A stretch of DNA of 64,000 bases from Spirochaetota bacterium (GCA_016934935.1 JAFGRW010000054.1:17900-81899), one strand, 5' to 3'; counted from the first letter of the stretch, positions 1,129-63,516 are shown. Made by a program: numbers and translations. Notes: generated from the letters alone by a model not told the origin.

Positions 1129-1166
1129 TATAGTAATACTTATAACAAAGAGATGACGGAGGAGTC

Positions 1167-35521: not shown

Positions 35522-35568
35522 AATGATAATAGAAAAGCTCCTTTTTAAGGAGCTTTTCTATTATCATT
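35522..35568. terminator. bidirectional terminator: perfect 22-bp palindrome with 3-nt loop
   Basis: AATGATAATAGAAAAGCTCCTT, then TTT, then AAGGAGCTTTTCTATTATCATT. It lies between convergent rplQ (+) and gene 35564..36568 (-). The 3' arm overlaps the stop codon of the minus-strand gene. Confidence 0.75.
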
Positions 35569-36568
35569 CTGTTGTTGTCGCTTCCTCTTTTTCTTCTGTA
35601 TCTTTCCTGTCCGGTGTATCAGGGCGTTTTTGATTGTTGGGGTTTGTTAATTCTGCTGATTTCGGATTCAATTCATCATAATTTCCTATTCGCTGCTTTT
35701 CAACACTGAAAAGCAGTTTGCGATTATCTGTAGCATCAACTTTATATGGTTCAGGTATTCTATCATCATAAATCGGAAACTGAGTTACCTTATGAGAAGA
35801 AACGTCATATTTATAAAGAATTTCGGACATTTTATGCGTATAAAGAGTCTGATATATTGCTATGCCGCATTCTTTTCCTTGTCGGGCTAGTTTTATGGCA
35901 TCTCTGTGTTTCTGCAATATAAAAGAGAGCTCTTTGTTTGTTTTTTTGTCCTTACTCATTATATAAATATAGTCTACATCGTCAAAAACCCTCTGCGCAT
36001 CTTCAAGGTTTCTGTACCCACTATCCAGATATTCTTCGATTGTGGCACGGATTCTAAAGTAGTGAAATTTATCTGCGTCATATGGCTTGTTGTCTTTTAA
36101 CGGGTCAATAGGACGTGAAAAAAAGTATTTCGATCTTCCCCCACCTCTTCCATATTCGACAATTATATCTACTGTTTCTTTTGCTATACTATCGAGTATT
36201 TCTTGGGTTCGGAAAATATAGAACTGAGATAGTTCACTATAAAGATCAATTAGTTGGAGTTTTAGATCATAAAAAAGATCAATGGAGGTCTCTTTCTCGG
36301 ATGATTTCTCCTTTTTATAGGTCAGGGAGCTAATATTTATAAAATGCCTTCCGTAATGTCTTTGAGCGGCAATTTGAAAATTGTCTCTTATTTTTTTCAA
36401 ATTTTCTTTTTCAGTGTCTGTTCCAAAATTTGAAATTATTATGTTTAATTCCCGTAATATTTCGAGAGATTTTCTGTATTCCTGATTAGAAATAACAGCG
36501 TTGGATACAGGATAAATTGAATGAGGAATTATTAATGTTATCAATAATATAATTTTTTTAAATCTCAT
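35564..36568 (-). CDS. hypothetical secreted protein with acidic low-complexity C-terminus
   Basis: It has an N-terminal signal peptide (MRFKKIILLITLIIPHSIYPVSNA). I found no recognisable catalytic motifs. The C-terminus reads RPDTPDRKDTEEKEEATTTE. Confidence 0.55.
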   Translation of the reverse strand: MRFKKIILLITLIIPHSIYPVSNAVISNQEYRKSLEILRELNIIISNFGTDTEKENLKKIRDNFQIAAQRHYGRHFINISSLTYKKEKSSEKETSIDLFYDLKLQLIDLYSELSQFYIFRTQEILDSIAKETVDIIVEYGRGGGRSKYFFSRPIDPLKDNKPYDADKFHYFRIRATIEEYLDSGYRNLEDAQRVFDDVDYIYIMSKDKKTNKELSFILQKHRDAIKLARQGKECGIAIYQTLYTHKMSEILYKYDVSSHKVTQFPIYDDRIPEPYKVDATDNRKLLFSVEKQRIGNYDELNPKSAELTNPNNQKRPDTPDRKDTEEKEEATTTE

Positions 36569-39318: not shown

Positions 39319-40404
39319 ATGAGAAAAGTAATTCTGTTGTTGTTTATATTTTGTTTGTCTTGTGATGGAGATCCGATTTTTTCAAATCTTGATAAATCGG
39401 ATATTATAATTGTTTTTAAAGCAACATATTCGTCAAATAATCCTCGAAATTGGTGGGGAGGTGCAGAGCCGGCCGTTTCTGCATTGGTTGATGATTCTGC
39501 AACCCATTCGACCCCGAAAGCGTTACCGGATAAGGTTCTTATTGATGTTGCGGAAGTCCGAGTCAATAATGATCGATTCTCAATAAAACGTTTTTTTAGA
39601 AATGCTGAGATGAACGATTCTCATGAACTTTTTTCCGGAAAGGGTGTTACGGTACCTACAAGTGATCTGTTTCCAGATGTAAATTATAAAAAGGTTAAAG
39701 TTTTTTTCAGAAAATTGATATATAATAATTCTTTGTACTATGATGATTCATGGGAATATATCGGAGAAACTGAAGAGAAATTTGCCAATGATAAAATACC
39801 CGGATATGATACCATCCACAGGTTAAAATATATTCAAAGTGATTATGATGAAGAAGAAGATGATGCTGAAAATATAGTTTACCCATTTGTTATTGAGTTA
39901 CCGCTTCCATTTCGTTACAAGGTTGGGACAAAAACAGTTATCGAAATCAGAGTGAATTTTAAAAATAATGTCAAATATTATGAATATGCTGATTCTGATG
40001 AAGAATATTATTATGGTTATTACTCAATTGCTGATTCTTTCGTCAATGTGAAAGAGGGTGACTTTTTTATTGGTGGAAATATGCAAGGTGGGGTTTATAT
40101 CTATGAGCCGGATAAAACCTTTACTATCAAAGGAACGGCCCCGGCAGAACGCTATGTAGTTGCTATTTTGAAAGATGATGACATTAAGAATTATTCAGGA
40201 ACTACTGCAATACCACCTTTGGCAACCTGGTGTGAAGATGGAACTTTTGTTTTAGAGAATGTACAAGCTGGCAGAGAATATAAATTTTATTATTCAACAA
40301 ACACGCCTAATTCAAATGCTGGTGTGGTTGAGGGGTTTTCTGGGGAAAAGATTGTCAATTTTGATATGGATCAAGTTGATAATGAATATAATCTTCAGTT
40401 GTAA
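39319..40404 (+). CDS. hypothetical lipoprotein with acidic/Tyr-rich stretches
   Basis: It has a lipobox signal (LFIFCLSCDG). No motifs were recognised. Acidic runs include DYDEEEDDAEN and DSDEEYYYGYY. Confidence 0.55.
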   Translation: MRKVILLLFIFCLSCDGDPIFSNLDKSDIIIVFKATYSSNNPRNWWGGAEPAVSALVDDSATHSTPKALPDKVLIDVAEVRVNNDRFSIKRFFRNAEMNDSHELFSGKGVTVPTSDLFPDVNYKKVKVFFRKLIYNNSLYYDDSWEYIGETEEKFANDKIPGYDTIHRLKYIQSDYDEEEDDAENIVYPFVIELPLPFRYKVGTKTVIEIRVNFKNNVKYYEYADSDEEYYYGYYSIADSFVNVKEGDFFIGGNMQGGVYIYEPDKTFTIKGTAPAERYVVAILKDDDIKNYSGTTAIPPLATWCEDGTFVLENVQAGREYKFYYSTNTPNSNAGVVEGFSGEKIVNFDMDQVDNEYNLQL

Positions 40405-47433: not shown

Positions 47434-49041
47434 ATGGCTATCAATAGAATAATGATTTCGATACATTATATACAAATTCTTCTTATTACTCTAACTATCT
47501 TGCTGGTTCTTCATGTAGTCGCCGGGCATCTTCGATGGCAGGTGAGTTCAAAATACCAGACAGGTCTGATTATTGGCAATATAATATGGACAATCGGAGC
47601 AGTTCTTGAAAAATCTGTATCCGTGGAATCAGGTGCGATATTCTGGTCTAGTTTTTCTTTTCTGGGTTTTATCTTCAATCCGGTTATGCTTTTTCTCTTT
47701 ATTGCAGATTACTGTAATACAATAAATTACATTAAAAAAAAAATTAGAAAATATGTTTTTGTAATCCCATCGATTGAAATAATTGCTCTTTTAACAAACA
47801 GATATCATAATTTATTTGTCACAGATTTTGTCTGGCATAAAGGAGATCTTTCTTATCAGTTTGGGCCTTTGTTCTGGCTAATGGTTGCTTACTTATGGTT
47901 TTTGATCGCTGCATGTGTTTTAACTATTTGCTATTCATTATTTAAATCAAGCCAAAATAATATGAAAGAATTATTTGTTCTTATCGCTATTTGCCTGATT
48001 ATACTGCTGTCTAATTTTGCATACATTGTGAGGATAAATGTTTTATCAGATTATGATTTTACGCCCGTAGCTTTTATTTTGAGTTCCGCATTTATATTAA
48101 TCATGTTTAACAAAAATTGTTTTGCTGAGTTACTTCCGTTAGCGCATAATTTTGTTTTCTCGAAAATAAAAGCAGGAATATTGATTCTTGATAATCAAAA
48201 TCGGGTAGTCGAATATAACGATAATGTTAATAGACAACTTGATGATGCAAATTTATGCATTGGTTATAATATATCAGATTTGCCTGAAAGGTATGCTATG
48301 ATCCGTGATATATGTATGCAAAACAGCTTTTACGAAAATGAAATAATGATACGTTCAGATGCTCCAGAGTATTACGAAATGAGTATTGATGAAATTTTTC
48401 ATAATAACAATCTTTCTGGAAAGATTGTTATGCTATATAATATTACTCATCAAAAAAAAGTTGAAAAACAACTTAAGATAGGTAATAATCTGTTAAAGGA
48501 CAGGTTATTTCAAATAGAACAACTACAGCTGAAATTGGGCGAGCAGGCTTTTAAAGATCCTTTGACAGGCCTTTATAACAGAAAATTTTTATATGATGGA
48601 ATAGCTAAGGAAATTTCAAGATCGGAAAGAGAGAAGTGCGGATTCGCCCTTGTTGCTGTTGAGATGGACAATTTCAACAGTATTGATAACCATTACGGCC
48701 AAAGTGCCGGTGACAGAGTAATGGTAGAGATATCAAATGTTATTGCTGATACCATTCGAAAAACAGATTATATTTGCCGTTTTGACAGCGGGACACTGAT
48801 GCTTATTATGACTAAAATTAATGAAAAAAATATTTCTGAAAAAATGAAGCGAATAGTTGATAAAATTACATCGTTGAAATTTAGCACCATTGCTGAAGGT
48901 ATTTCACTTGTTTCACATTTTGGATTTGCTTTATATCCGCAAAATGGAAGAACACACACGGAGCTATTTTCAAAAATTGAAAAAATGCTTCGTGAATCAA
49001 AGGAACAGAGTATAAACAGAAGTATCATTCCTGAGAATTAA
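47434..49041 (+). CDS. membrane sensor with N-terminal 7TM region, PAS-like segment and degenerate GGDEF domain (I-site retained)
   Basis: It has about 7 N-terminal TM helices and DPLTGLYNRKF. The GG(D/E)EF position reads RFDSGTL, while RKTD (RxxD) sits 5 residues upstream. Confidence 0.75.
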   Translation: MAINRIMISIHYIQILLITLTILLVLHVVAGHLRWQVSSKYQTGLIIGNIIWTIGAVLEKSVSVESGAIFWSSFSFLGFIFNPVMLFLFIADYCNTINYIKKKIRKYVFVIPSIEIIALLTNRYHNLFVTDFVWHKGDLSYQFGPLFWLMVAYLWFLIAACVLTICYSLFKSSQNNMKELFVLIAICLIILLSNFAYIVRINVLSDYDFTPVAFILSSAFILIMFNKNCFAELLPLAHNFVFSKIKAGILILDNQNRVVEYNDNVNRQLDDANLCIGYNISDLPERYAMIRDICMQNSFYENEIMIRSDAPEYYEMSIDEIFHNNNLSGKIVMLYNITHQKKVEKQLKIGNNLLKDRLFQIEQLQLKLGEQAFKDPLTGLYNRKFLYDGIAKEISRSEREKCGFALVAVEMDNFNSIDNHYGQSAGDRVMVEISNVIADTIRKTDYICRFDSGTLMLIMTKINEKNISEKMKRIVDKITSLKFSTIAEGISLVSHFGFALYPQNGRTHTELFSKIEKMLRESKEQSINRSIIPEN

Positions 49042-50023
49042 TGATCTGATTTTTCATAATCATAAAGTCGTGACCTTCGAATGAAGGAGCACGCCTGAAA
49101 AAAAAGGCAATTGTCGGGGGTATGCAACCGAAGACTGTATCTGATAAATAGAAATTTCCAGGAGTAACGTAAGAATTGGCCGCGTGAAAAATGAGATTTA
49201 AAGAATTTGAAACAGATTTTCCTGCCATATCTTCGTTTAAATAAGTAACGTTTCCCAGATGAAGTATTATAGTAGGGTTTACAATAACGGGAGACTTTAA
49301 AGTTTCTCCAGAAAATAAAATTTTGTTCAGAAGAAAATTAAAAATTCCCATGAATATATTATGGTTATTGTCTTTATAGGGAAATAGAAAAAGTACTTTA
49401 TTATCATCGGTTATCCATAATTTTCCATCAAGTGCGCCAAAATAAGATTTTAAATAATCACGTACAGTATTAATTATTGATTCAGTAAATTTGTAGCCAA
49501 AGTGATTTTGTAGTTGAGTTACCTCTTCCAGCCGAAAATACAAAATGTAAAAAGAGTATTCTTTGCCTTCCTGAATTGAATTCCATCCCTTATCCGCTTT
49601 TTTAATGTTCATACGTAAGGAGTTGTTCATAATTACTTTATCGGGCAAACTAAAATTTTTATAACTGCGAATTTTTTTTATTCTGCCTGGAGTAATTGGA
49701 TACGCAATTTCTTTCTTTGAGATATAGTCACAGAATCCAGCAAAAAAAAGATCTGATATGGAAGCGATTTCGGATTTGGGATCGATAATTCCAAAATTAA
49801 TCGCAGCTTTATCTACAAAATCAGATATACTTAAATATAATTGATCTGCTTCCAGACCTTGTATATCATAATAAACCAGGTCTCCCGGGTTTATAGAGTC
49901 TATTGATGTATTAAACATATCCCTTTTATAAATGAATAATTCATAGTCTTTTAAAAGAGAATCAAACAGGGAGCCAATTTTTTTGCTGTTTGTGAAAACA
50001 TATATATTCATGAATTTTCCCAC
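49025..50023 (-). CDS. cyclase-homology-domain (class III nucleotidyl cyclase-like) protein, apparently degenerate; N-terminal unknown domain
   Basis: The C-terminal half aligns to CHD blocks. YSFYILYFRLEEVT lacks the first metal Asp. It also has GKLWITDDNKVLFLF and TIILHLGNVTY. It overlaps the downstream gene by 16 nt. Confidence 0.55.
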   Translation of the reverse strand: MGKFMNIYVFTNSKKIGSLFDSLLKDYELFIYKRDMFNTSIDSINPGDLVYYDIQGLEADQLYLSISDFVDKAAINFGIIDPKSEIASISDLFFAGFCDYISKKEIAYPITPGRIKKIRSYKNFSLPDKVIMNNSLRMNIKKADKGWNSIQEGKEYSFYILYFRLEEVTQLQNHFGYKFTESIINTVRDYLKSYFGALDGKLWITDDNKVLFLFPYKDNNHNIFMGIFNFLLNKILFSGETLKSPVIVNPTIILHLGNVTYLNEDMAGKSVSNSLNLIFHAANSYVTPGNFYLSDTVFGCIPPTIAFFFRRAPSFEGHDFMIMKNQIINSQE

Positions 50024-50931
50024 TGTAAGCGATAAATAAAATATGAGCCGGATTTTTTTGAATCATATGGAATAAAGGCAGAAGCAAGAACTCCTTCGAT
50101 TGATGTCATTACAGTATTTGTTGCAACAGCTGAATTAGGTGGAGAAATATTTTCCAACTTTATAGTATCCATAACAGGATCTTTCGTTTTAAGCATATCA
50201 TGATTATCAATATATTCTGTTACACCTGTATTAAGACCGACTCGAATTTGAACCGGATTATCAAGTATGTTCTCAAAAGTATTGTAAGAGAAAAGAGAAT
50301 GCAAAACTTCAATGCTGCTGTAAAGAGCTTTCGAAGAGTGATCTCCAAAGTGAAAAGCTGTTAGAACTCCGTCTCCCTCAATATGCCATATTCTTCCGTT
50401 TCGCGATTCTGTTGCCGATCTCACCAGATTGTGATACTTTTGATAAAAAGATAATACATCTCTATGTGAGTTCTTTTTAAGATGGATTGTTGACTGAACT
50501 ATATCGTACCATACAAAAGTGAATGTATAATCAACTCCCTGTTGCAGCACGCCCCAGTTTTTACTTATTCTGTATTGAGGATCTTCATAAACTTGCCCTG
50601 TAACCGGATCGATGCTAAACCCCATATCAAAAAGAGTTACAACGATATTGCGTAGTTTAGAAATCTTGTATTTACGCCCTTTGTATCCTTTTGACTGAAT
50701 TGAAAAAAAGACATTTATAAAGGGAATAAGCAGATTAAAGCGACTCATATCATCAACTATCTGTCTGGCAATATCAAGCCTTGGAATATCAAGACTGGCA
50801 GGAAGGTTTGAGTACGCTTGAATGTTATAGTCGGGAATAATTTCTCTGGCAAGATGAATCATGGATCTTTGATCAATTGATTCAGCAAGTGATTGGGATA
50901 CGAGTTTGTTAAATGTCTTATCTGTTTTCAT
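50008..50931 (-). CDS. class III adenylate/guanylate(nucleotidyl) cyclase-homology-domain protein with N-terminal unknown domain
   Basis: It has TFTFVWYDIVQST (metal Asp 1), NGRIWHIEGDGVLTAF (metal Asp 2) and QIRVGLNTGVTEY, the hallmark RIGIHTG-like strand. Confidence 0.65.
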   Translation of the reverse strand: MKTDKTFNKLVSQSLAESIDQRSMIHLAREIIPDYNIQAYSNLPASLDIPRLDIARQIVDDMSRFNLLIPFINVFFSIQSKGYKGRKYKISKLRNIVVTLFDMGFSIDPVTGQVYEDPQYRISKNWGVLQQGVDYTFTFVWYDIVQSTIHLKKNSHRDVLSFYQKYHNLVRSATESRNGRIWHIEGDGVLTAFHFGDHSSKALYSSIEVLHSLFSYNTFENILDNPVQIRVGLNTGVTEYIDNHDMLKTKDPVMDTIKLENISPPNSAVATNTVMTSIEGVLASAFIPYDSKKSGSYFIYRLQWENS

Positions 50932-51274: not shown

Positions 51275-53434
51275 ATGAAATGTATAGATGTATTACCAGG
51301 AGTAAAAATAGCGGATAATGGCCGAATATCGATAATGTTCGGATGTCCCCCTGAGATTATTAAAACACTACAGGTGCTCGATATTTCCTTTCCCGATTAT
51401 ATCGTTATTCCTGATACAATATATAAATACGGAGTTGTGCAAAACAGTACTGAATTTCCTCTTTACTATTTTGTTTTTGAACTTCAAAACTGCTTTAAGA
51501 AAAAACTGGGTATTATTGGGGATCTTGAAAGCGTTTCAAATAATATAGAACTTCTTAAATTGACGCTTATGGGACCGAGTTTGGATAATTATAGAGAAAT
51601 AGGTTCTAATCGCTTCTATAACCAACTGTACAAAGAGGCCAGGTATCTTTCATTGAAAAATGAAGACGGTGAAGAGTGTGCGATAAAAGATTTTGTTGAT
51701 ACATATGTTTTTGATGATAATGGAACCATCCAGATTGAAGATATCACCATCAAACATGAAAATGACAATGTGTATTCGATCAATGGGATCGAAATTGATA
51801 TAAATTTTTATGAACCACAGAGGCCGCCATATACTTTAAGAACCAACTATACGCCCAATGTTCCTTTTAAGTTTGGAGTAGATATCCTGGGAGGGGGATC
51901 TGGTTTTACTCCCCGTCAACCCTGTTCAGCTCTTCTTTTAAACTATAATTCGGAATTTATGCTTATAGACTGTGTTCCTTATCTTGATCACTCGTTGAAT
52001 GCCCGCGGTATTTCGAAACAACAGGTAGGTGCGCTTTTTTTGTCTCATATCCATGATGACCATTGCAATATGTATCCGCTTTTAGAGATGAATGATCGTG
52101 TCAAATTTCTTGGAACAAAAGAGATTTACTGGATGGCTTTGCGTAAACTGGCTCTTCAGACCAATGGAAATCCGGAATACTTTGATTCATTTTTTGATTT
52201 TGTCGAGTTAGAGCCATATAAAGAAAATGACTTTTATGGTATGTCCATTATTCCGCACTATACTGTTCATTCAATACCAACAATTGGTGCTACATTTAAA
52301 ATGAAAGATCGTGAAATTATTAAAAGACTTTGTTTCGTAGGGGATAACAAGTCTCTGGAAAATATTGCTCAAATGGTTGATGAAGGTATTGTGTCAGAAA
52401 AAAAATATCAGTATTTAGAGAGAGTCTATTCACGCAGATTCGATATACTTTTTCCTGATGGCGGAATGGGGCTGTTGCATGGTGATCCGGTGGATTCACT
52501 TAATTCAAAGTCTGATTCTGTTGTTTTTATGCATCTTGAAAAGCTCCCGGCAAAATTTGACGCAACTTTTTCTTTAGCGCAGGTTGGAAAGCGTTATAAC
52601 CTGATTGAAAGTAACCAGCATATGTATCATGCTTTTACAGTGCAGACTATCCAGCTGATTCAACAGGCGTTTCCTAATATATCATATAACTGGATAACTG
52701 CGATTATGAATGATGTGCGATTTATTGGTTATAATATTGATGACATCATACTTAAGCAGGGGGAGGAACGTCGGGGGGCAATCTATATTATTCTATCAGG
52801 TAGATGTCGCGTTAAACAGCACGATGGTGAAATTTTAAAAGAAATTGCGTTAAAAGAGGTCGGTGACTTTATAGGTGAAATGGCAATTATTAAAAATAAT
52901 GATCATCGAACAGCGTCGGTTGTGGCCGAAACTCCTGTAATACTATGCCAATTTGATGAAAAGCTGTTTTATCATTTTCTGGAAGAAAATAATCTAGTAG
53001 AATCTACAAAAAATATGTGGATTCAGCGTAGTGAGCTGGATACCTTTTTGCCATTTAGTGATTTTTCTGATTCATTAAACGAAGAGATTTCAAGAGCTTC
53101 GGTAAGAAGAAAAATTGAACCCGGATTTGTAATTATTCGAGAGGGGGATAATTCTACAAGTTTTTACATTGTTGTTAAAGGGCTTTTTTCTGTAGAAATT
53201 GATGGTGAAAAAATAAATGTTTTAAAGAAGGGAGATATATTTGGAGAATTTGGAAGTATTTCGGAATTAATGCGTACAGCCACCGTTACTTCACTTGAAG
53301 AAAGTATTGTGTTGGAAATACCGAAAAACGAGATAAACAGAATAATTGAATCCACTCCAGCTCTAAACTTCTTTATACACCGGCTGCTTAAAAAAAGGGC
53401 GGATTCAATAAACTGGACTAAAAATAAAAAATAG
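51275..53434 (+). CDS. metallo-beta-lactamase-fold hydrolase fused to two cyclic-nucleotide-binding domains (putative cNMP-gated phosphodiesterase/nuclease)
   Basis: It has an HxHxDH motif (LSHIHDDHCNMY). It has two CAP-family cNMP-binding motifs with intact phosphate-binding cassettes (PBC), FIGEMAII...RTASVVA and IFGEFGSISELMRTATVTS. It is 719 aa with an unassigned N-terminal 200 aa. Confidence 0.7.
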   Translation: MKCIDVLPGVKIADNGRISIMFGCPPEIIKTLQVLDISFPDYIVIPDTIYKYGVVQNSTEFPLYYFVFELQNCFKKKLGIIGDLESVSNNIELLKLTLMGPSLDNYREIGSNRFYNQLYKEARYLSLKNEDGEECAIKDFVDTYVFDDNGTIQIEDITIKHENDNVYSINGIEIDINFYEPQRPPYTLRTNYTPNVPFKFGVDILGGGSGFTPRQPCSALLLNYNSEFMLIDCVPYLDHSLNARGISKQQVGALFLSHIHDDHCNMYPLLEMNDRVKFLGTKEIYWMALRKLALQTNGNPEYFDSFFDFVELEPYKENDFYGMSIIPHYTVHSIPTIGATFKMKDREIIKRLCFVGDNKSLENIAQMVDEGIVSEKKYQYLERVYSRRFDILFPDGGMGLLHGDPVDSLNSKSDSVVFMHLEKLPAKFDATFSLAQVGKRYNLIESNQHMYHAFTVQTIQLIQQAFPNISYNWITAIMNDVRFIGYNIDDIILKQGEERRGAIYIILSGRCRVKQHDGEILKEIALKEVGDFIGEMAIIKNNDHRTASVVAETPVILCQFDEKLFYHFLEENNLVESTKNMWIQRSELDTFLPFSDFSDSLNEEISRASVRRKIEPGFVIIREGDNSTSFYIVVKGLFSVEIDGEKINVLKKGDIFGEFGSISELMRTATVTSLEESIVLEIPKNEINRIIESTPALNFFIHRLLKKRADSINWTKNKK

Positions 53435-53436
53435 TA

Positions 53437-53886
53437 TCAATCTTCACAGAAAAATTCTACAATTTCGGCCGCGTTTTGAGCTGACAAAAGCACCCGTCGA
53501 AAGGCATTGCTTTTAGTTGCGCGGGATATCTCCGATAGTGCTTCAATATGAGGACCCGATTGATCAGGTGGAGCCAACAGTAGAAAGAAAAGATGAGATA
53601 AGTTGCCATCATGTGAATCACAGTCTATTCCTTTTGGTGAAACTCCAATTGCCAGTACCAGTTGATTAACCTCTTCTGTTTTCGCATGAGGCAAAGCAAT
53701 GCCGTTTTCGAGTGCAGTGCTCATCTGATTATCGCGGTTGATTACAGCATCAAATACCGATTCTGTGTTCTTTACCTTGCCGGCCTTGTGAAGTATTTCT
53801 ATCAGTTCCCGGAAGACATCATGTTTCGTGTTACTTTCAAGTGGTACTTTTATTACATCTTCGTTTATCATTTCCAATAATGTCAT
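53437..53886 (-). CDS. ptsN: PTS EIIA type-2 (PtsN / EIIA-Ntr-like) regulatory protein
   Basis: It has GIALPHAKTEEV with the conserved His. It is 149 aa. Confidence 0.75.
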   Translation of the reverse strand: MTLLEMINEDVIKVPLESNTKHDVFRELIEILHKAGKVKNTESVFDAVINRDNQMSTALENGIALPHAKTEEVNQLVLAIGVSPKGIDCDSHDGNLSHLFFLLLAPPDQSGPHIEALSEISRATKSNAFRRVLLSAQNAAEIVEFFCED

Positions 53887-53898
53887 GTTCGTTACCCC

Positions 53899-54399
53899 TT
53901 AGTTGAGATTCTCATAGATATCATCGACTCGATCTTCATCTTTTACAATTAAAACTGAACAGGGCACACTTCGCATGGCTCGCTCACTTTCATTGTGAAA
54001 TTCATCTCTACGACTTCTAATCCTGGATAGTTCACCAATTACAAATAGATCAATTTCGTATGATCTGACAAGTTCTTTAATTTTCACATTGACCAATCCG
54101 CTCTCCTTTATGCATTCGGGAGCCAGACCCTTTGAAACAGCTTCAGTTTCAAAGTTTCTTAAATATTTATCTGCATCAGCTTCAAGATCGTTTTTGTATT
54201 CAATTTGTTCAGATTCAATAAAAATACGGCTTTTAACGAGGTCATTAAGAGCATGGGTATTAATGATAAATGTGCCGTATAGTTTTGCGTTCAATTTTCT
54301 GCATAAACAGATGGCATATCGTGCCGCGGTGACCGACTCGATAGAACCGTCCAGGTAAACGAGAACCCTCTCTACAGGATTATCCATATTTATCTCCAT
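53899..54399 (-). CDS. universal stress protein (UspA family)
   Basis: It has a Usp fold pattern (VLVYLDGS...CSVLIVKDED). It lies 4 nt downstream of V-ATPase subunit D. Confidence 0.7.
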   Translation of the reverse strand: MEINMDNPVERVLVYLDGSIESVTAARYAICLCRKLNAKLYGTFIINTHALNDLVKSRIFIESEQIEYKNDLEADADKYLRNFETEAVSKGLAPECIKESGLVNVKIKELVRSYEIDLFVIGELSRIRSRRDEFHNESERAMRSVPCSVLIVKDEDRVDDIYENLN

Positions 54400-54402
54400 T
54401 CA

Positions 54403-55044
54403 TTATTTGTTACTTAAACGGGCTTTAACTCTTTTCATTAGAATATAACGATCTCTCTCGTCTTCTTCAAGTCTGTTTTGTATGTATCTGATGGACTGGG
54501 TCAGATCTGGTATGGCAATTTTTTCTAAAGCATTTACCTTGCGTATGGTTTTACGCACTTCACGAGCCAGCCTCATAATGGATATTTTAAGTTCCGCCAG
54601 TTCACCCATTATGCTCAATATCTGCTTAAAGTCATTAATTGCGTTATCAATCCATGAACTTGTACCCTCAGGAGCGTAGTAGGGGCCATGCTCTTTAAAA
54701 GTTGTCCGTACAACCGGAAGCGATACTCCCATAATACGCCTGGAAGTCAGTGTAATTGATGATTCAATATTAATTGCAGAGGACAGGGCAGCGGCTTTTA
54801 GTTTGCCGTTTTCGATAACAGCAAGTCGTAGTGATTTGTGAGCTTGTTGAAGTGTAAAATCTGATTTTTCTTCAAAATCAACAGCAAGATCTATTAAGTT
54901 AAGAAGTTCCATAATAAGTATATTTCGTTTTTGATCCAGAAGCTCGTATCCCTGCGAAGCAAATTCAAGTTGCTGTTTGAGCCGAATCAGATTTGTTCGT
55001 GTGGGAGCTGGGCGATTATCTGCCATAGTGTTCATCCAGTTCAT
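54403..55044 (-). CDS. V/A-type ATP synthase subunit D
   Basis: It reads [30 protein letters not shown]. An alternative start at 55026 would reduce the overlap with subunit B. Confidence 0.85.
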
Positions 55045-56431
55045 CTTCAGTTATGCGTGTAAGTTCTTCCGGAGGAAGAATACTTAAACATTGCCATGCT
55101 ATATCGAGACTCTCTTCGATGTCGCGATTCTCATCATTGCGCTGGTTTACAAAGCGCCGCTCAAATTCATCACCGAATTCCATATATTGTTTGTCTAAAG
55201 CTGTTAGCTCTTCATCACCAATTACCGATGCTAAATTACGTACATCCTTTACATAACTGTAAGACGCAAAAAGTTGGCTTGCCAGATGAGGGTGATCGAT
55301 TCTTGTCATATCTTCACCGATACCGTCTTTCATAAGTCTCGAAAGGGAGGGTAATCCAGCGACTGGAGGGTAAATACCACGGCTATTCATGTCCCTGTCA
55401 AAAACAATCTGACCCTCTGTTATATAACCAGTTAGGTCAGGTATAGGGTGAGAGATATCATCATTCGGCATAGTAAGTATTGGAAGTTGAGTTATTGAAC
55501 CGGAACACCCTTTTATCATGCCCGATCTCTCATAGAGTTCTGCAAGATCAGAATAGAGATAGCCTGGATATCCTTTTCTGGAAGGTATTTCGCCTCTTAT
55601 TGTCGAAATCTCTCTTAACGATTCACAATAGTTTGACATATCGGTCATTATTACCAGTACATGTTTGCCGCAGTCGTAAGCGAGATGTTCTGCAAGTGTT
55701 AGAGCCGTACGGGGAGTGATAATCCGCTCGATGGATGGATCGTCGGCCAAAGACAGAAAGAGAGCGACTTTATCCAGTACTCCTGAAGACTCAAAAGAGT
55801 CGATAAAATAACGTGCTATATCATGTTTGATTCCCAGTGCGGCGAACACAACCGCAAAATCGGTTTTTTCACCTCGTAGAGTTGCCTGACGGGCAATCTG
55901 TGCCGCAAGCTGATTATGCGGAAGTCCGTTACCTGAAAATATTGGAAGCTTTTGTCCACGTATCAGGGTATTCATTGCATCAATAACAGAAATTCCGGTC
56001 TGAATAAAATCACGCGGATATTCGCGAGCTGTGGGATTAACGGGCAGCCCATTTACATCTTTCTCAATTGCAGATATGGGCGGAGGACCACCGTCAATGG
56101 GATTCCCCAGCCCATTAAAGACGCGTCCAAGCATTGATACGTCAACAGGAATCATTAGAGGTTCACCCTTAAAACGCATCCTTGTGCCGGGTAAGGTTAG
56201 GCCGCTGGTGCCCTCAAAAACCTGGACGGCAACAGCAGTTTTTGATGTATCCAGTACCATTCCTAATCTAACCTGTCTATTTTGATCAATACACTCGACC
56301 AGTTCGCGGTAACCGACTTGATGTGTATTGCGAATAATTATAATCGGGCCATCAATCTGATGAACACCGATATATTCACGTCCTTTAAGAAGATCTTTAT
56401 GAATTTTATCCAGTTTATCTGTTTTTATCAT
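55016..56431 (-). CDS. V/A-type ATP synthase subunit B
   Basis: It is 471 aa. It is the non-catalytic alpha/beta-family subunit with a degenerate P-loop region. Confidence 0.93.
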
Positions 56432-56438
56432 TTTTTAC

Positions 56439-58211
56439 CTACAGTTTTTCTATAGATCTTTCAAGACGTGCTTCAATACGGTCAAGAAGTGAAAGATCGT
56501 CGTTAGGAACAGTTAATTTCATTTTTACAATATCTTGAAGCACTTTTATACGTCTTAGATTAACTAAAGTTGTTCCCTTGCGAATGGAGTTTTCACCAAG
56601 CTCGGCATATTTGAGGATTATATCCATCATACGTAATTGTTTTTCGACAGTCGAATAGCAGTCGTTTTTATCAAAAGCGCTCTGTTGCAGAAATGCGTTT
56701 TTAAAAAGTGTGCATATTTCTATCACAAATCTCTGGCTGTCGGGTAATGCGTCAGGACCAACAAGTTTAACTACCTGCTGTAATTTTATTTCACGTTGTA
56801 AAAGCTCCATGATGCGTGAACGGTTACGAAACCAGTTGTCACCGGCTCTTTCTGCCCACCAGGGCGAGACTTCGTCAAGATATTCGGAGTAGCTTTCCAA
56901 CCAGGATATGGCTGGGTAGTGGCGAGCGTTTGCCAGATGTCTATCCAGTCCCCAGAAGCAACGGACAAATCTTTTTGTGTGCTGAGTTACGGGTTCCGAG
57001 AAATCGCCTCCAGGAGGAGAAACTGCTCCGATAAGAGTTACTGAGCCCTCTTCTTCATTAAGGGTTTTCATAAAACCGGCACGTTCATAGAATTCTGCTA
57101 TTCTGGTAGGTAAATACGCAGGGAAACCCTCTTCGGCCGGCATCTCTTCCATACGACCTGAAAGTTCTCTGAGGGCTTCTGCCCAACGTGAAGTAGAATC
57201 GGCCATTACTGCTACATGGTATCCCTGGTCGCGATAGTATTCCGCAAGTGTTACCCCGGTATAGATACTTGCTTCTCGTGCCGATACAGGCATGTTGGAC
57301 GTGTTGGCGATCAGTAAAGTTCGTTCCATTAAACTGCTTCCTGTACGAGGATCAACAAGTTTAGGAAACTCGTTAAGTACATCGGTCATCTCATTGCCGC
57401 GTTCGCCACAACCAATATAGACTATTATGTCTGCGTCACACCATTTGGCAATAGCGTGCTGAGTCATGGTTTTTCCTGTTCCGAACCCACCTGGAATTGC
57501 AACTGTACCGCCTTTTGCAAGAGGAAATAGTGTGTCAATAACTCTCTGCCCTGTAATAAGGGGAATGCGTAAAGGAATGCGGCTTGCCACAGGCCGTGGT
57601 TTTCTAATCGGCCAGCGATGAATCATGGTGAGGTCTTTAACCGTTGAACCATCATTAATTTTTGCAATAACCGTATCAACAGTATAGCTTCCGGGATTAA
57701 GCACAGAGTTAACTGTACCAGACAGATCTGGTGGACAGAGTATTTTATGTAGTATACGGTCGCTTTCCTGTACTGTTCCGAGTACTGTCCCGGGAGATAT
57801 GAAATCACCGTCATTTATTGCCGGAGTATAATTCCAGAGTTTTTCACGATCTATTGATGGCGACTGAATACCTCTTTTAATATGTGAACCTGATATTTCA
57901 GCCAGTTTTTCCAGTGGGCGCTGTATTCCATCATATATTGTCCCTATAAGACCGGGGCCTAGCTCAACAGAAAGCGGCAGTCCTGAACCGTAAATAATAT
58001 CGCCCGGTGCAACGCCTGTTGTATCCTCATATACTTGAATAATGGCATTGTTACCGGATAGCTTAATAATCTCTCCGATTAATCTTGCTTCAGAAACACG
58101 TACAAGTTCCATCATCATGCCGTCGGTTATTCCATCGGCTTCAATAACCGGGCCGTTAACCCGTTTTACCAGTCCGATGCTTCTCTCTTCCATTTGAACC
58201 TCGTCTTGCAA
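56439..58211 (-). CDS. V/A-type ATP synthase catalytic subunit A
   Basis: It is 590 aa with a GGFGTGKT P-loop and a non-homologous insert typical of A subunits. Confidence 0.95.
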
Positions 58212-58249
58212 GATGCCTTATCGCAACAATAATGCATCACAATTTTTTG

Positions 58250-58891
58250 TCAGTTATCAGAACTATCAATAATTTTGTTAATCGCCTGTCGTATATCTGA
58301 CTGATTTCGAATGATTCTGTCGTTAACAGTATTACTAAACGCTACAGATCCATCTTCGGCGTTTAGTACTACACCCTGACAACTCAGGTGATCAGATTCA
58401 TCCAATTTAATAACTGTTTCATTGCCTCTGATTTCAGAAACCCGTTTATTTACTAAATCCAGGAAGTCCCTATTAATAATTTTTTTTTCGGCGGCAGATG
58501 TTCTAATGATAGCACGAGAAAGATTCAAGCCAATGGCAGCCTCAATAATCCAGTTTAACAGGATATGCCTGTATTCAGGTTTATCTATCTTACTTGCCAT
58601 ATGTGCTCGGGTGTCAGAAATGAGTTTATTGATAAGCGCTTCACGTTCGCGAAGGGCTTTGCGTTTTTTTTCTACAGCTATTTGAGAAATTATAGAATTC
58701 CGTTTTTCATTTTCTCTTCGGGTTGCCTCTACTTCGGCATCACGAAGAATGTTCTCTTTTTGTATTGACCAGCTTTTTTGGTGTTCATCAATTTGAACAT
58801 TCGCGGTTCTGACTATTTCATCAGCTTTTTTTTGAGCTTCTTCAAATATACCGCTTATTACCGCCTGTTGACCCTTCTGTTCCATATTCAC
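58250..58891 (-). CDS. V/A-type ATP synthase subunit E
   Basis: It has a coiled-coil N-terminus plus a globular C-terminus, and operon context. Confidence 0.7.
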   Translation of the reverse strand: MNMEQKGQQAVISGIFEEAQKKADEIVRTANVQIDEHQKSWSIQKENILRDAEVEATRRENEKRNSIISQIAVEKKRKALREREALINKLISDTRAHMASKIDKPEYRHILLNWIIEAAIGLNLSRAIIRTSAAEKKIINRDFLDLVNKRVSEIRGNETVIKLDESDHLSCQGVVLNAEDGSVAFSNTVNDRIIRNQSDIRQAINKIIDSSDN

Positions 58892-59197
58892 CTACAAATT
58901 GATACCTATAGCTTCATTTACCATTTCCCGTAATCGGGGTTTGTTCAGATCACGACCGTCCATGCCTGGAATTTCAACTATTAGTGGAAAATCGTGGGAA
59001 AATGTGTAACTATTAACCAGTCCGCTGATTAAGGCGGACGCCTGTTCTGTAATAATTATGATCGCTGTTTCGGATAAGGACAATGCTTCTTCAAAAGCCG
59101 CTTGGGCCTCCTGTTCATTTGTGGCTGCACGTCCGTGAACACCCACCATGCCGAATCCGAGAACAGTGTCTTCGTCACCGATAATGAAATATTTCAA
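58892..59197 (-). CDS. V/A-type ATP synthase subunit F
   Basis: It is 101 aa and starts MKYFIIGDEDTVLGF. Confidence 0.75.
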   Translation of the reverse strand: MKYFIIGDEDTVLGFGMVGVHGRAATNEQEAQAAFEEALSLSETAIIIITEQASALISGLVNSYTFSHDFPLIVEIPGMDGRDLNKPRLREMVNEAIGINL

Positions 59198-59565
59198 AAT
59201 TTACCCAGAATCATCAACGCTGCGATAAAACCAAAAACAGCAATTCCTTCAGCCATTGCCACAAATATTAGAGCTTGACTTCCGACTTCAGGTTTCTCGC
59301 TCATAGCACCCATCGCTGCCGAGCCTACACGTGAGATAGCCATACCGGCACCTATAGCGCCAAGACCGAAAGCAATTGCTGCTGCAATTACTTCCCATTT
59401 TACTACTTCTGCTTGATGCTCATTTGCAATAGAGCTTAGGGATTCGGCTTCTTCCGCGGCCATTGCCGGAGAAACAAGAATTAATAGCGCTATTATCATT
59501 GTAAATAGAGTAATGAGAAGACTAAGAGCTATTCTTTTTCTAAAGACTTTTTGAGTTGAGTTCAT
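59194..59565 (-). CDS. V/A-type ATP synthase proteolipid subunit K (single-hairpin c-type with N-terminal extension)
   Basis: It has a Gly-rich TM (GLGAIGAGMA) and a carboxylate helix (AMAEGIAVFGF). It also has an extra N-terminal hydrophobic segment. Confidence 0.75.
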   Translation of the reverse strand: MNSTQKVFRKRIALSLLITLFTMIIALLILVSPAMAAEEAESLSSIANEHQAEVVKWEVIAAAIAFGLGAIGAGMAISRVGSAAMGAMSEKPEVGSQALIFVAMAEGIAVFGFIAALMILGKF

Positions 59566-59687
59566 TTTTACCTTCCTGTATTATCAATAAGCTTAAAACA
59601 ATTAGGTAACCTCCAATAACCAAAATAACACTTAATAGCTGTTACATTCTAAAAATGGTAATTTTAGAAGTTCCCATTGCCTCCTAT

Positions 59688-61679
59688 TTATTTCTGACGA
59701 AGTGAAATGGGCTCGTAAACCCTGCCCGAACCGCGAAAATATTTTGAGAAAAACTCGTAATAATTTAAGCGCAGTGACTGTATACCGGCTGATAGCCCTT
59801 CAAGGGCAATTACCAGTATATTTCCTATAATAATCACGATGAGTGACACAATCGCTGAATCAGATGAAGCCGCAATTTGAAAGAAAGCGTTCATTAAACT
59901 TACATGAGCAATTCCAAGACCAGCAATTCGTAAAAAAGAGAGGGTATTGGAAAGATATCCTGAAAAAAGCTCCAGCAGTTCGACAATCCAGTCCATAAGC
60001 CAATCTGTGATTATACCGATTTTAAACGGAGTTTTACATTTTATAAAAAATTCTGTCGGAGCTTTTATTGCAAAAAGTATACATGGCAGACCCGTTAAAA
60101 TATATAATTCTTTGTCTGGCGGAAAACTCTTGTAATTACTATTTACAAAGAAAAAAGCGGTGTATACGCCTCCAGCATAGAACCAGCTGCCTAAAATACC
60201 GCCTTTATCAAAGAGAAAAGAAAAGTATCGTTTTGAACGTATACAGTTTATCATGTTTAAAAGAAGTCCGCAACCGATAATCGTGACACCAAATTTTATT
60301 GTTATACCAAGTATATCGTAAATATCGCTTATTAGACCAGTTCCCTTATGCCCCAGTACAATTCCATGATAGTCAAACCATAGTGGTTTAAAAAGCCCAA
60401 GCCCAAAATATGACCCAAATAGAATTCCTGCTGCAACTGAAGCCATACCGCAGTACATAATCAGTCTTGCAAGTTCATAAGCTGTACCGCGTTTTTTCCG
60501 TTTTATAAGAGCGGTAATTGCTCCGCAAAGAGCAAGAACCAAGCCGTGACCGGCGTCACCGAACATCAATCCAAACATGGTTAAAAAAGAGAATGCAACA
60601 ATCACAGTTGGATCAATGCTTCCATATTGCGGCATCGAATAGTTTTCGACCACCCATTGAAACGGTTTAAGAAAAGTACCATGATTAAGTTTAACAGGAA
60701 CAATCGAGCTGTTGAGTAGAGGATCCTCTTCGGGTTTGACCCATTGTATGTAATACTTTCCATTCGTAATCTTCTTAATGATCTTTTCGGCTGCATTTTT
60801 CAAATGGCAAGGTAGCCAGCCGGAAAAAATTACTGTGTCTGATGTTTTACCAAAGCTGTTTTGAATTTTTATACATTGAGCGGTTATTGTCAGATTTCTC
60901 CAGGATTCAGTAAGTATCGGAGCGAATTTTCTGATTATATCTTCTGCCTCCTTTTCAAATCCGGTTTGCTCTCGGTTAAGTTCTTCGATTGAAGAGGCGA
61001 GTTTATTAAGAATCTCTTCTTTCTTTCCAGTTAATTCAGGTGGAAATTCAACACTTTGCCACTGATACCTGTCAAGTGCTGTGCCGATTCGTTCTTCGTC
61101 TCTGGACATATATATGATTATTGCTGATACTTCATCTTGAGTTGATTGGGAAAAGTGAATAACAGCAGGATATAACGATAGAGCCTGCGTTAATCCTTCC
61201 TTCCTGGATTTACGTATCAGACCGGTTGCAACTCTGACTGAAGACTCAGGAGGAGGTGACGCTTCGATGGAACCAAAAAGATCGGTTTGTCTCATTATCT
61301 CCGTTTTTCTATTGATGCTCTGTTGAATATCCTTCTGCTTGTCGCGAATTTGCCGAATTTGAAGATTCAGTTCATCAAGGCGATCGGTAACTTCTTTGGG
61401 ATCAACCGGAACCAGCTTTTCGGCATTAAGATCCGAGGTGTCAGGAAGAGGAATATTTACTTGTGACAATAATTGTTCTATTCTGGAGCGTATTTCAATG
61501 ATATCTGTTTCAGCTGTATCTTTGTCAAACGGCGAGAGCTGATTGGAAAATGAGAGTGTTTTATCATGTATATCGGTAAAATCAATAATACCTTCATTTA
61601 AAAGTGCTTTAGTAACGGAATCGGTATCTCTACGTAAAATTATTGCGTTTAATCTGATCATTGATTGTGGAAAGATCAT
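59688..61679 (-). CDS. V/A-type ATP synthase subunit I (a-subunit)
   Basis: It is 663 aa with a soluble N-terminus, a polytopic C-terminus, and an essential Arg region. Confidence 0.85.
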   Translation of the reverse strand: MIFPQSMIRLNAIILRRDTDSVTKALLNEGIIDFTDIHDKTLSFSNQLSPFDKDTAETDIIEIRSRIEQLLSQVNIPLPDTSDLNAEKLVPVDPKEVTDRLDELNLQIRQIRDKQKDIQQSINRKTEIMRQTDLFGSIEASPPPESSVRVATGLIRKSRKEGLTQALSLYPAVIHFSQSTQDEVSAIIIYMSRDEERIGTALDRYQWQSVEFPPELTGKKEEILNKLASSIEELNREQTGFEKEAEDIIRKFAPILTESWRNLTITAQCIKIQNSFGKTSDTVIFSGWLPCHLKNAAEKIIKKITNGKYYIQWVKPEEDPLLNSSIVPVKLNHGTFLKPFQWVVENYSMPQYGSIDPTVIVAFSFLTMFGLMFGDAGHGLVLALCGAITALIKRKKRGTAYELARLIMYCGMASVAAGILFGSYFGLGLFKPLWFDYHGIVLGHKGTGLISDIYDILGITIKFGVTIIGCGLLLNMINCIRSKRYFSFLFDKGGILGSWFYAGGVYTAFFFVNSNYKSFPPDKELYILTGLPCILFAIKAPTEFFIKCKTPFKIGIITDWLMDWIVELLELFSGYLSNTLSFLRIAGLGIAHVSLMNAFFQIAASSDSAIVSLIVIIIGNILVIALEGLSAGIQSLRLNYYEFFSKYFRGSGRVYEPISLRQK

Positions 61680-62812
61680 CAGTTGCCTCCGTGAATATCA
61701 GCAGTATAGTGTAGAGTATTCAAAGTGGAAATAATCCTGGAGATCTCATTTTCTCGAAGGCGTATATACACAAATGCTAAGGACTCGTCAAATAATGATC
61801 TGGTTTTTACTCTTGTATAAAGGTTTACTGTTCTTTCCTGTATGCTTTGTCTTATATATGAATGCAGTTCGTGCTGTTCCAATTTGGTTGATTTGTCAGT
61901 CATAGATGAAAGCGAAAAACGTTTTAAAATTTCTGCTGTGGATGGTCTATTATCATTAATAAAGTCTGACTCTATGATTCGGTTGCCTCCAGGAATATAA
62001 AGAATGTTCTGTGATTCCGGGCTGACAATATTTGATAAACGAACAAGCCGCCCTAGATTAATCATATCGATATCCTGTTCAAGTAGAAGTTTAAGGTCGG
62101 TATTCTTGTCGCTGTGAAAAAGATTCAGACAATCACATAAGCAAGCAGATGAGTGTTGCATGTTTGCAAAGTTGTTGTAAAAATGAATTTTAGCAACAAG
62201 TGCTGAACAGGTGGAAAGAGAGTAGTTTATTACTGTGTTATAAAGATATTTGTAATAGCTGTTTTCAAGAATAATTTCGCAGCGAAGCAGATTGCCACTT
62301 TCGCTAATTTTTTCCAGTTCCTGAATGACACAAGCGTATGGGGTTGTTCTGAGATGTTCGGTAAGGGACTCGGTGTTTGATGCGTTTATTATACTGTCAT
62401 AAGAAACACCTTCTAAAGGGATATCCCGAGGAATATACTCGGTATAGTCGCTGATTGACCTTTTGCGAAATGATTGATCAAACCAGAGCCTAAGAGCTGT
62501 TTTGAAGGCGCTGTAACGGCTGCGCTCGGAAAGCGCTTTAACAAGTGGAATAAGTACTGCTGGTGAATGGTTTTGAAGTTTAATAATATCCTGATATAAA
62601 AAAGTGACAAGTTCTTTTTCAACTGTTTTCAAATCTCCGGTGCGGGAGTAAGTCTTTGTAATAAAATTAAAATCAGTCGATTGAAACATATAGAGAGCTT
62701 CTTCGAGTGAAGCAGATTTAAGAAGTTTTTCAAAAAAATCGGGTGCGAGGAGTTTTGCCATCAGGGCATGTATCCGTGAGTTTATGTAGGCATAATCTGA
62801 TAAGCCACCCAT
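61679..62812 (-). CDS. V/A-type ATP synthase subunit C (d-subunit family)
   Basis: It is 377 aa and all-helical. It sits between the G/H and I genes. Confidence 0.6.
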   Translation of the reverse strand: MGGLSDYAYINSRIHALMAKLLAPDFFEKLLKSASLEEALYMFQSTDFNFITKTYSRTGDLKTVEKELVTFLYQDIIKLQNHSPAVLIPLVKALSERSRYSAFKTALRLWFDQSFRKRSISDYTEYIPRDIPLEGVSYDSIINASNTESLTEHLRTTPYACVIQELEKISESGNLLRCEIILENSYYKYLYNTVINYSLSTCSALVAKIHFYNNFANMQHSSACLCDCLNLFHSDKNTDLKLLLEQDIDMINLGRLVRLSNIVSPESQNILYIPGGNRIIESDFINDNRPSTAEILKRFSLSSMTDKSTKLEQHELHSYIRQSIQERTVNLYTRVKTRSLFDESLAFVYIRLRENEISRIISTLNTLHYTADIHGGN

Positions 62813-62816
62813 AATA

Positions 62817-63122
62817 TTATTCTTCCTTTACGCTGGTGTTGCAAATTATGGCCGATATTTCATTAATTGCGAGTTCATAGCTGTTATTAGGTAATTCAAG
62901 GTTACCAATTCTTTTGCTTTCATTTTCCTGATATACATTTTCTGCTGTTGCAATGATTCTTTTTTGCAATGATTTGCGAATATTATCTTTGAGTTTGATT
63001 TTTTCTTCGTTTATATCGGCATCAGTTTCCCTGATCATTCTGGAGGCTTTATCGCGGGCATCACGAACAATTTTTTCTGCTTCTTTTTCGGCTGCGAGAA
63101 TCTCTTGCAGTACAGCTTTCAT
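62817..63122 (-). CDS. V/A-type ATP synthase subunit G/H (peripheral stalk coiled-coil)
   Basis: It starts MKAVLQEILAAEKEAEKIVRDARDKA. GGAG lies 9 nt upstream of ATG 63122. The listed 63194 start adds an N-terminal extension lacking a ribosome-binding site. Confidence 0.6.
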   Translation of the reverse strand: MKAVLQEILAAEKEAEKIVRDARDKASRMIRETDADINEEKIKLKDNIRKSLQKRIIATAENVYQENESKRIGNLELPNNSYELAINEISAIICNTSVKEE

Positions 63123-63516
63123 TAGAAATGCTCCGCAAATAGTAATTTTATGTCCGGAAGATGTTTGCACAGGAAATAACGGACAAATTTTCACCTGATT
63201 GTAGGTATACGACTTAAGAATGTCAATATCTTTTCAATCTTTCATGGAACCTGTAAAAATGTAACTTTCCGGGCAGTTAAAACTTTTTGCTCTTTAGCGA
63301 TATTTAGGTATATACAATCAATTCTGTGAAAGTTCTCTTGTTTAATTGTCCAACACAACATTACAAATCAAAGAAGTGTTGGACTGATTACATCTTACAT
63401 TTTATTAATAGAAGTTACCACCAGTAATATTTTATTCACAGGTAACTTAATATACTTTAAAAATTTCCAAATAGACCGATATTGAGAAAAGACAGTGTTT
63501 TTTTACGGGGGAAGTT

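Follow-up and report, generated by a model that had tools for sequence, protein, structure and literature searches.

Degenerate GGDEF domains with a live inhibitory site (I-site) are a textbook class of effectors of c-di-GMP (cyclic dimeric guanosine monophosphate), of the PelD, PssE, YdaK and PopA type. YdaK of Bacillus subtilis carries transmembrane (TM) helices, an SDERI signature and the I-site motif RxxD; it binds c-di-GMP in vitro without synthesising it, requires the I-site residues R202/D205 for its function and exerts its effect on proteins encoded by its gene neighbours (PMC5422440). PssE of Listeria monocytogenes has a DKDDA signature, preceded by RxxD five residues upstream, and each protein binds two c-di-GMP, with a Kd of 0.79 uM (PMC4125290). 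GdpS of Staphylococcus aureus is membrane-anchored, and its cytosolic GGDEF domain recruits a partner enzyme to the membrane non-catalytically (PMC11962490). In this study, a gene of a Spirochaetota bacterium was analysed that encodes a membrane sensor protein with a degenerate GGDEF domain in which RxxD is retained. The gene lies on a 64,000-nucleotide (nt) stretch of DNA (GCA_016934935.1, JAFGRW010000054.1:17900-81899), which is referred to as the window, and its product as the window protein.

Like YdaK, the window protein is integral to the membrane, with its TM module at the N-terminus and, at the C-terminus, a degenerate GGDEF domain in which RxxD is kept. However, YdaK has four TM helices and neither a PAS domain nor a long signalling helix, and it is encoded within a same-strand exopolysaccharide (EPS) operon (ydaJ-N), whereas the neighbours of the window gene are convergent and belong to cyclic nucleoside monophosphate (cNMP) signalling. 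PssE and PelD of Pseudomonas aeruginosa, both I-site c-di-GMP receptors, likewise combine a degenerate signature with RxxD, but they activate the exopolysaccharide synthases of their own operons, and no polysaccharide genes flank the window gene. PelD has a GAF domain rather than a PAS domain. GdpS differs in its retained GGEEF signature, its independence of c-di-GMP and its 5TMR_LYT sensor, and is a precedent for a scaffold role only. The closest relatives form the HisKA_7TM-PAS-GGDEF parent family, of which protein P0046 (encoded at locus L015) is an example; length, domain order, end-to-end alignment, the RKTD I-site and the genomic position beside a cyclase-like gene pair and a radical-SAM gene are all shared, but in the parent family GG[DE]E[FILM] is intact together with all residues that bind guanosine triphosphate (GTP) and metal, which the clade of the window protein has lost. 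The gene and its parts are as follows, with lengths in amino acids (aa):

47434..49041, plus strand: gene for the 7TM-PAS-degenerate GGDEF protein, 535 aa, GenBank MBN2769164.1, with an alternative start at M7 = 47452
47479..48138, plus strand: HisKA_7TM membrane sensor module, aa 16-235, the fastest-evolving part (ratio of nonsynonymous to synonymous substitution rates, dN/dS, 0.44), missing from the orthologue at locus L004
48139..48549, plus strand: PAS-like domain and long helical linker, aa 236-372, the most conserved part (dN/dS 0.065)
48550..49017, plus strand: GGDEF-fold domain by Pfam, alignments to PDB entries and an AlphaFold2 (AF2) model, aa 373-528, catalytically degenerate
48661..48714, plus strand: degenerate metal/GTP-binding box EMDNFNSIDNHYGQSAGD, canonically DxDxFKxxNDxxGHxxGD, with D327E, K332N, N335D, D336N and H340Q
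48757..48768, plus strand: I-site RKTD, R442..D445, equivalent to PleD R359..D362
48778..48798, plus strand: degenerate active site (A-site) RFDSGTL, the canonical form being R[YF]GG[DE]EF

The original prediction, made from the DNA alone, had read RFDSGTL at the signature position, with both glycines and the catalytic acidic residues lost, and RKTD as an I-site five residues upstream. Independent alignments obtained with phmmer to four solved diguanylate cyclases (DGCs; 7e6g SiaD, 6d9m, 6zxm DgcR and 4urs) placed R449-F-D-S-G-T-L455 on R-[YWF]-G-G-[DE]-E-F and R442-K-T-D445 on RxxD. The spacing is canonical, with the five residues YICRF between RKTD and D451. A MAFFT alignment using PleD as a ruler, after the PleD sequence had been validated against the PDB, agreed: R359 maps to R442 and D362 to D445, and the signature carries G368D, G369S, E370G, E371T and F372L (PleD numbering). 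The prediction therefore stands on both sites, and the nucleotide spans of the I-site, the A-site and the metal/GTP box give the expected translations. Further active-site losses not listed by that prediction are D327E, K332N, N335D, D336N, H340Q and R446I (PleD numbering), among which D327E affects a metal contact, K332N a phosphate contact and N335D a guanine contact; of D327, K332, N335, D344, K442 and R446, D344 and K442 alone are kept. Neither GG[DE]EF nor a variant of the AGDEF/SGDEF type with E370/E371 occurs at the aligned position, where DSGTL stands. An alternative register was rejected, since an intact GG[DE]EF is found nowhere in the 535 residues and the four alignments to PDB entries agree. 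The equivalents of R390 and R313 are also present (R473 and R396), and the receptor-type pattern consists of a degenerate A-site and an RxxD that lies upstream of it at a distance of five residues. Judged by its residues, the protein is almost certainly catalytically dead and incapable of making c-di-GMP. The name 'diguanylate cyclase', assigned by the Prokaryotic Genome Annotation Pipeline (PGAP) to MBN2769164.1 and also borne in public annotation by the orthologue P0002, is contradicted by this active-site analysis.

The overall architecture was likewise recovered as predicted, namely, a membrane sensor with a GGDEF domain. In Pfam, residues 16-235 matched HisKA_7TM (PF16927) end to end, over profile positions 2-224 of 224, with E 9e-35. 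The GGDEF domain was matched at residues 373-528 (Pfam, E 5e-31, 108 bits against a cut-off of 23.8) and by TIGR00254 in NCBIfam (E 1e-29, 103 bits against a cut-off of 37.4), so that the protein belongs to the GGDEF superfamily (PF00990 / TIGR00254) by scores exceeding the curated cut-offs. The DPLTGLYNRKF start named by the prediction was found at residues 375-385. In the AF2 model, the GGDEF domain reached a predicted local distance difference test (pLDDT) score above 90 over about residues 350-530 and was superposed by Foldseek on the GGDEF domain of T. maritima (4urs/4urg) with a template modelling (TM) score of 0.87-0.90 and a root-mean-square deviation of 1.6-1.8 A, thereby confirming the fold. 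The 7TM part of the full-length model is poor (pLDDT ~40-55), and few aligned sequences cover it. Residues 231-372 gave no PAS match in Pfam even at E<=10; they are collinear with a PAS domain that Pfam detects in 8 of 10 family members, and the AF2 model shows PAS-like strands there, with low confidence at 300-327, followed by a long helix at residues 338-373. No EAL or other enzymatic output domain was found in the window protein with Pfam. An identical protein is deposited in GenBank as 'MAG: diguanylate cyclase [Spirochaetes bacterium]' (MBN2769164.1). The start codon is ambiguous between 47434 and 47452: the near-identical P0206 (NCBI) and P0208 (JGI/IMG) are called at 529 aa from M7, and P0002, an orthologue with 50% identity, aligns from M7.

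The degenerate state is rare in the family. At E<1e-30, an exhaustive HMMER search yielded 477 representatives of clusters; of the 150 listed, most share the length (~535 aa) and architecture of the window protein. Motifs were tabulated for 152 family sequences: GGEEF occurs in 88, GGDEF in 42, GGDE[ILM]/GGEE[ILM] in 14 and AGDEF in 2. The signature GG[DE]E[FILM] or AGDEF is thus present in 146 of the 152 (our summary puts the intact signature at ~97%), and RxxD, the ancestral state, in 147. Degenerate signatures are limited to the clade of the window protein (DSGTL three times, NGDTL once) and two unrelated singletons. This clade comprises four sequences, namely, the window protein, P0001, P0002 and P0003, and its conservation statistics refer to these four and their near-identical cluster members; no further members were found by a profile search of a 5.8-billion-protein set, a metagenome contig scan and a genome contig scan. 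The Pfam GGDEF score of the window protein, 108 bits, compares with 157-171 in parent family members.

Comparison with orthologues outside the clade gives the direction of change. The nearest outgroup, P0046 (33% identity), reads RKTD..RYGGDEL and keeps all catalytic residues, and its locus shows the same order as the window (the cyclase-like pair, a convergent GGDEF gene and the radical-SAM gene). The L010 orthologue, within the same four-gene cluster, reads RKTD..RFGGDEM. Catalytic death is therefore derived, because these syntenic outgroup orthologues keep an intact GGDEF. RxxD does not vary among the four clade members or the syntenic outgroup orthologues, and RKTD is letter-identical in 6/6 cluster orthologues, and across orthologues only 32-50% identical overall. 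The family conserves 40 GGDEF-domain columns at a level of at least 85%; the four clade members all keep 19 of these, and the other 21 are changed. The kept columns include the DxLT..NR domain entry, D329, F331, structural glycines, D344, R366 and both I-site residues; only 2 of 10 A-site rows are kept. G368, E371, F372 and R446 are gone from all four members, as is most of the AD..Y.AK..GR motif at the C-terminus, whereas D327, K332, N335, D336, H340 and G369 were lost solely in the sub-lineage of the window, with K332 surviving in P0003. P0002 has lost the signature and R446 and keeps D327, K332, N335, D336, H340, D344 and K442; the window lineage has lost five more GTP-site residues. The retention of GTP-site residues in P0002 and not in the window lineage indicates that catalysis was lost first and the GTP pocket eroded later.

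A separate observation concerns P0003, the L004 orthologue (75% identity), which starts at M-ELIPLAH (query residue 231) and has no 7TM module at all. The region 4376-4854 of L004, 478 nt upstream of the P0003 gene (4854-5771), has no homology to this module; on the same contig, which has a coverage of 3.2x, the radical-SAM gene is called in two pieces. Since this coverage is low, P0003 could be either a genuine soluble form of PAS-GGDEF or an artefact of assembly.

The degenerate domain is under purifying selection. Using the Nei-Gojobori method between the window and its relative at L002 (92% aa identity), dN/dS was 0.23 for the whole gene, 0.44 for the 7TM module, 0.065 for the PAS/linker region and 0.147 for the GGDEF domain, and 0.03-0.27 for neighbouring genes. 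Against L004, the values were 0.08 for the PAS/linker region and 0.17 for the GGDEF domain, with synonymous divergence near saturation. The reading frame is intact in the near-identical sequences (at least 90%) P0001 and P0206-P0208, and in P0002. Because it is under purifying selection, the domain still has a function, and that function is most likely receptor-like, since the A-site is dead and RxxD, the entry motif, the helix and the PAS-like domain are kept under purifying selection.

We therefore favour a model in which the protein is an I-site c-di-GMP receptor, as the best explanation overall, with a probability of about 0.5. It descends from ordinary product-inhibited DGCs of the HisKA_7TM-PAS-GGDEF family. 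In this small Spirochaetota clade, the GTP/metal half-site has been destroyed, and RxxD, DxLT..NR, the signalling helix and the PAS-like domain have been kept. An intercalated c-di-GMP dimer would be bound at R442/D445, aided by R473 and R396, on a cytoplasmic dimer of the degenerate domain, and its occupancy would be combined with whatever the 7TM/PAS module senses. That the domain binds c-di-GMP at the I-site has roughly even odds. The output would most plausibly be a protein-protein interaction at the membrane. The best candidate partners would be an asymmetric class III cyclase-like pair and a protein with a metallo-beta-lactamase (MBL) fold and two cNMP-binding domains, chosen because of synteny, which is the only ground for the choice; such partners would couple the c-di-GMP level to cNMP turnover. 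The candidates are encoded as follows:

49025..50023, minus strand: 332-aa protein, distantly paralogous to its 307-aa neighbour and devoid of the two candidate metal Asp residues; converges on the degenerate GGDEF gene
50008..50931, minus strand: 307-aa protein, folded at its C-terminus as a class III nucleotidyl cyclase, with conserved candidate metal Asp residues D143 and D187
51275..53434, plus strand: 719-aa protein with an MBL fold and two cNMP-binding domains, cyclic-nucleotide phosphodiesterase-like

Several observations weigh against the receptor model. Given 19 of 40 columns kept, the probability that both I-site columns are retained by chance is ~0.2, which is not significant. The equivalent of R390 (PelD R402) is not conserved in the clade, being R473 in the window protein, R in P0001, K in P0003 and I in P0002. 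IRKTDY[IV]CR[FY] forms a structural strand-turn and RxxD is ancestral, so that RxxD may have been retained by inertia. No gene of the neighbourhood evolves faster than this one, with 50% identity to L003 where neighbours have 60-81%, and 92% to L002 where neighbours have 96-99%. The cyclase-like pair stands alone in 4/8 lineages, and the GGDEF gene is convergent or divergent to it, never in an operon with it. Cluster orthologues with an intact GGDEF show that the cluster requires no receptor-type GGDEF. A tblastn search with 45 GGDEF/EAL-containing proteins found no other GGDEF/EAL gene in the 64-kb window, PilZ and HD-GYP being outside that search. The original prediction had taken the pattern of a dead A-site and a live I-site as typical of proteins that bind rather than make c-di-GMP: the pattern is upheld by the alignments and by characterised precedents, and binding is argued by analogy, the retention of the I-site not being significant.

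The main rival, possible though rather unlikely, is a nucleotide-independent membrane scaffold or adaptor, in which the degenerate domain would be an interaction surface and RxxD a structural leftover. It might, for example, bring in or control the cyclase-like or phosphodiesterase-like proteins encoded next to it, or pair with an active 7TM-GGDEF paralogue in inactive heterodimers. Such roles have precedents in GdpS, whose membrane-tethered GGDEF domain recruits DgkB non-catalytically (PMC11962490), and in Shewanella, where a GGDEF domain is an interaction switch with HubP (PMC9061725). The letter-identity of RKTD across such divergent orthologues tells against a mere leftover, as do the additional presence of R396 and R473 and the c-di-GMP binding of known proteins with exactly the same pattern (PssE, YdaK). 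The scaffold would accord with the statistically weak retention of the I-site, the variable R390 equivalent and the placement of the strongest constraint on the PAS/linker region, not the GGDEF domain.

A sensor of GTP or another nucleotide, which would bind GTP at the A-site without turnover and signal the GTP level to a partner, is improbable. The GGDEF domain of PdeA (CC3396) of Caulobacter binds GTP without turnover. In P0002, the base- and phosphate-binding residues are mostly intact (those listed above), and D344 and R366 are kept in 4/4 clade members. In the window protein, however, N335, the guanine contact, has become Asp, with K332 replaced by Asn, D327 by Glu and R446 by Ile; the residues that differ among clade members are those of the GTP site, contrary to the conservation expected of a GTP sensor, and an EAL or other enzymatic output domain is absent from the Pfam matches.

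A decaying gene or domain, that is, an incipient pseudogene, was rejected on the dN/dS values (0.15-0.17 for the GGDEF domain and 0.065-0.08 for the PAS/linker region) and is very improbable. The rapid evolution of the gene, the 7TM value and the L004 orthologue without the 7TM module would suit decay, but the frame is intact in all five sequences named above, and dN/dS falls within the range of the housekeeping neighbours. Least probable of all, to the point of near exclusion, is a still-active DGC with a non-canonical motif: both glycines and both acidic signature residues are gone, D327, K332, N335 and R446 are substituted, and we know of no characterised active DGC variant without all of these residues. 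The PGAP name and the activity of some variants, such as AGDEF, as far as described in one source (PMC3974145), are the points in its favour.

The neighbouring 307-aa and 332-aa genes are an overlapping, conserved Spirochaetota pair without Pfam or NCBIfam assignment. The 307-aa protein scored 19.9 bits with Pfam Guanylate_cyc (PF00211), under the cut-off of 21.9, and had no NCBIfam match and no PDB sequence match; PDB sequence searches with both proteins gave nothing meaningful, and the cyclase fold was identified by fold search alone. Its AF2 model (pLDDT 83.6) had class III adenylate/guanylate cyclases as 50 of the 50 Foldseek matches listed, among which E ranged from 1.6e-9 to 1.6e-7 and the TM score reached 0.81. 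D143 and D187 are conserved in 7/8 homologues. The 332-aa paralogue is 22% identical to it (E 3e-6), and both Asp residues are lost in 7/7. This asymmetry recalls heterodimeric class III cyclases, and the pair has the look of a heterodimeric cyclase with unequal partners. In the 307-aa protein, the first ~125 residues are helical, match no known domain and are strongly conserved. The 719-aa protein gave weak RNase Z and cyclic-nucleotide-phosphodiesterase matches in its MBL domain; its N-terminal ~200 aa are uncharacterised, and its L003 and L010 orthologues have a precomputed match to PF23023 Apyc1. It is 81% identical to the L003 orthologue and thus far more conserved than the GGDEF gene (50%).

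The left flank of the gene (radical-SAM MiaB-like, DUF454, FMN reductase and solute-binding protein genes) is syntenic in all relatives. On the right, the window, L002 and L004 have the minus-strand pair; in the window the MBL-cNMP gene follows, and L002 and L004 end before that position. At L003, the pair is absent and the MBL-cNMP gene lies 115 nt beyond the GGDEF gene on the same strand; a pair occurs on another contig of the same metagenome sample, 3300051636 (named 'Spirochaetes bacterium', as for P0002). Across eight pair-carrying lineages, a 7TM-GGDEF gene adjoins the pair in four (the window clade, L010, L014 and L015) and the MBL-cNMP gene in two (the window and L010); the GGDEF and MBL-cNMP genes are neighbours in the window, at L003 and at L010. 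In two pair-alone lineages, L008 (13474-14406) and L011/L012 (10457-11536), a SpoIIE/PP2C-type phosphatase gene lies within ~1-5 kb downstream, which may be coincidence or another signalling partner.

The association between the GGDEF gene and the pair is recurrent, not obligatory. A functional link is plausible because the adjacency recurs in four of the eight lineages; the two are not co-transcribed because they are convergent. The tail-to-tail arrangement had been predicted with an 18-nt overlap: the convergence was found, and the overlap is 17 nt (49025-49041). Similarly, the physical link to the cyclase pair that had been proposed holds as a recurrent adjacency, but not as co-transcription, and the pair is off the locus in the 50% relative. 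Given the intact GGDEF motifs of the other orthologues, the cluster is not dedicated to c-di-GMP sensing in particular. An output of the receptor to the cNMP module is a tentative suggestion that we consider rather unlikely. It is more doubtful still that the four genes would be a conserved Spirochaetota module coupling c-di-GMP to cNMP, in which the GGDEF protein of the window clade switched from producer to pure receptor and c-di-GMP of other origin gates cNMP synthesis or degradation at the membrane. Bd1971, presented in PMC6717892 as a cAMP-sensing EAL enzyme, is a precedent for convergence between c-di-GMP and cNMP.

In the remainder of the window, no c-di-GMP riboswitch was found; Rfam at the gathering threshold gave a tRNA only. 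The window belongs to the core chromosome, with two very large open reading frames (ORFs) taken as rpoB/rpoC from size and position alone, a run of small ORFs resembling ribosomal-protein operons by appearance, and V-type ATPase genes. A GAF-HisKA-HATPase histidine kinase (202-1532, plus strand), which the window edge may cut short, precedes a stand-alone receiver domain protein. In the stretch covered by 53437-54399 and 54403-63194 (both on the minus strand), phosphotransferase system (PTS) EIIA (Ntr-type) and universal stress protein genes are found immediately downstream of the MBL-cNMP gene; they are placed upstream of a V-type ATPase operon, and the order is kept in L003. Two further ORFs, 35564-36568 (minus strand, 334 aa) and 39319-40404 (plus strand, 361 aa), have no Pfam match; the latter is conserved, and likewise unannotated, in L002 and L003.

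The class to which the window protein would belong is well described; less routine are its sensor-coupled architecture, the transition from producer to pseudoenzyme among syntenic orthologues, and a conserved neighbourhood that comprises the cyclase-like pair, so far unannotated, and a phosphodiesterase-like protein regulated by cNMP. The analysis corrects the public mis-annotation of MBN2769164.1 as 'diguanylate cyclase'. If c-di-GMP binding is true, a sensor-coupled (7TM and PAS) I-site receptor would be added in an uncultured Spirochaetota lineage. The association of the cluster with this pair and this protein offers a lead, open to testing, towards cross-talk of c-di-GMP with cNMP signalling. 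Of more use is the evolutionary aspect: orthologues with intact and with dead sites occur in the same conserved cluster, thereby providing a natural comparison of the passage from cyclase to pseudoenzyme, in which the order of loss is visible, the signature and R446 going first, followed by the metal and guanine contacts.

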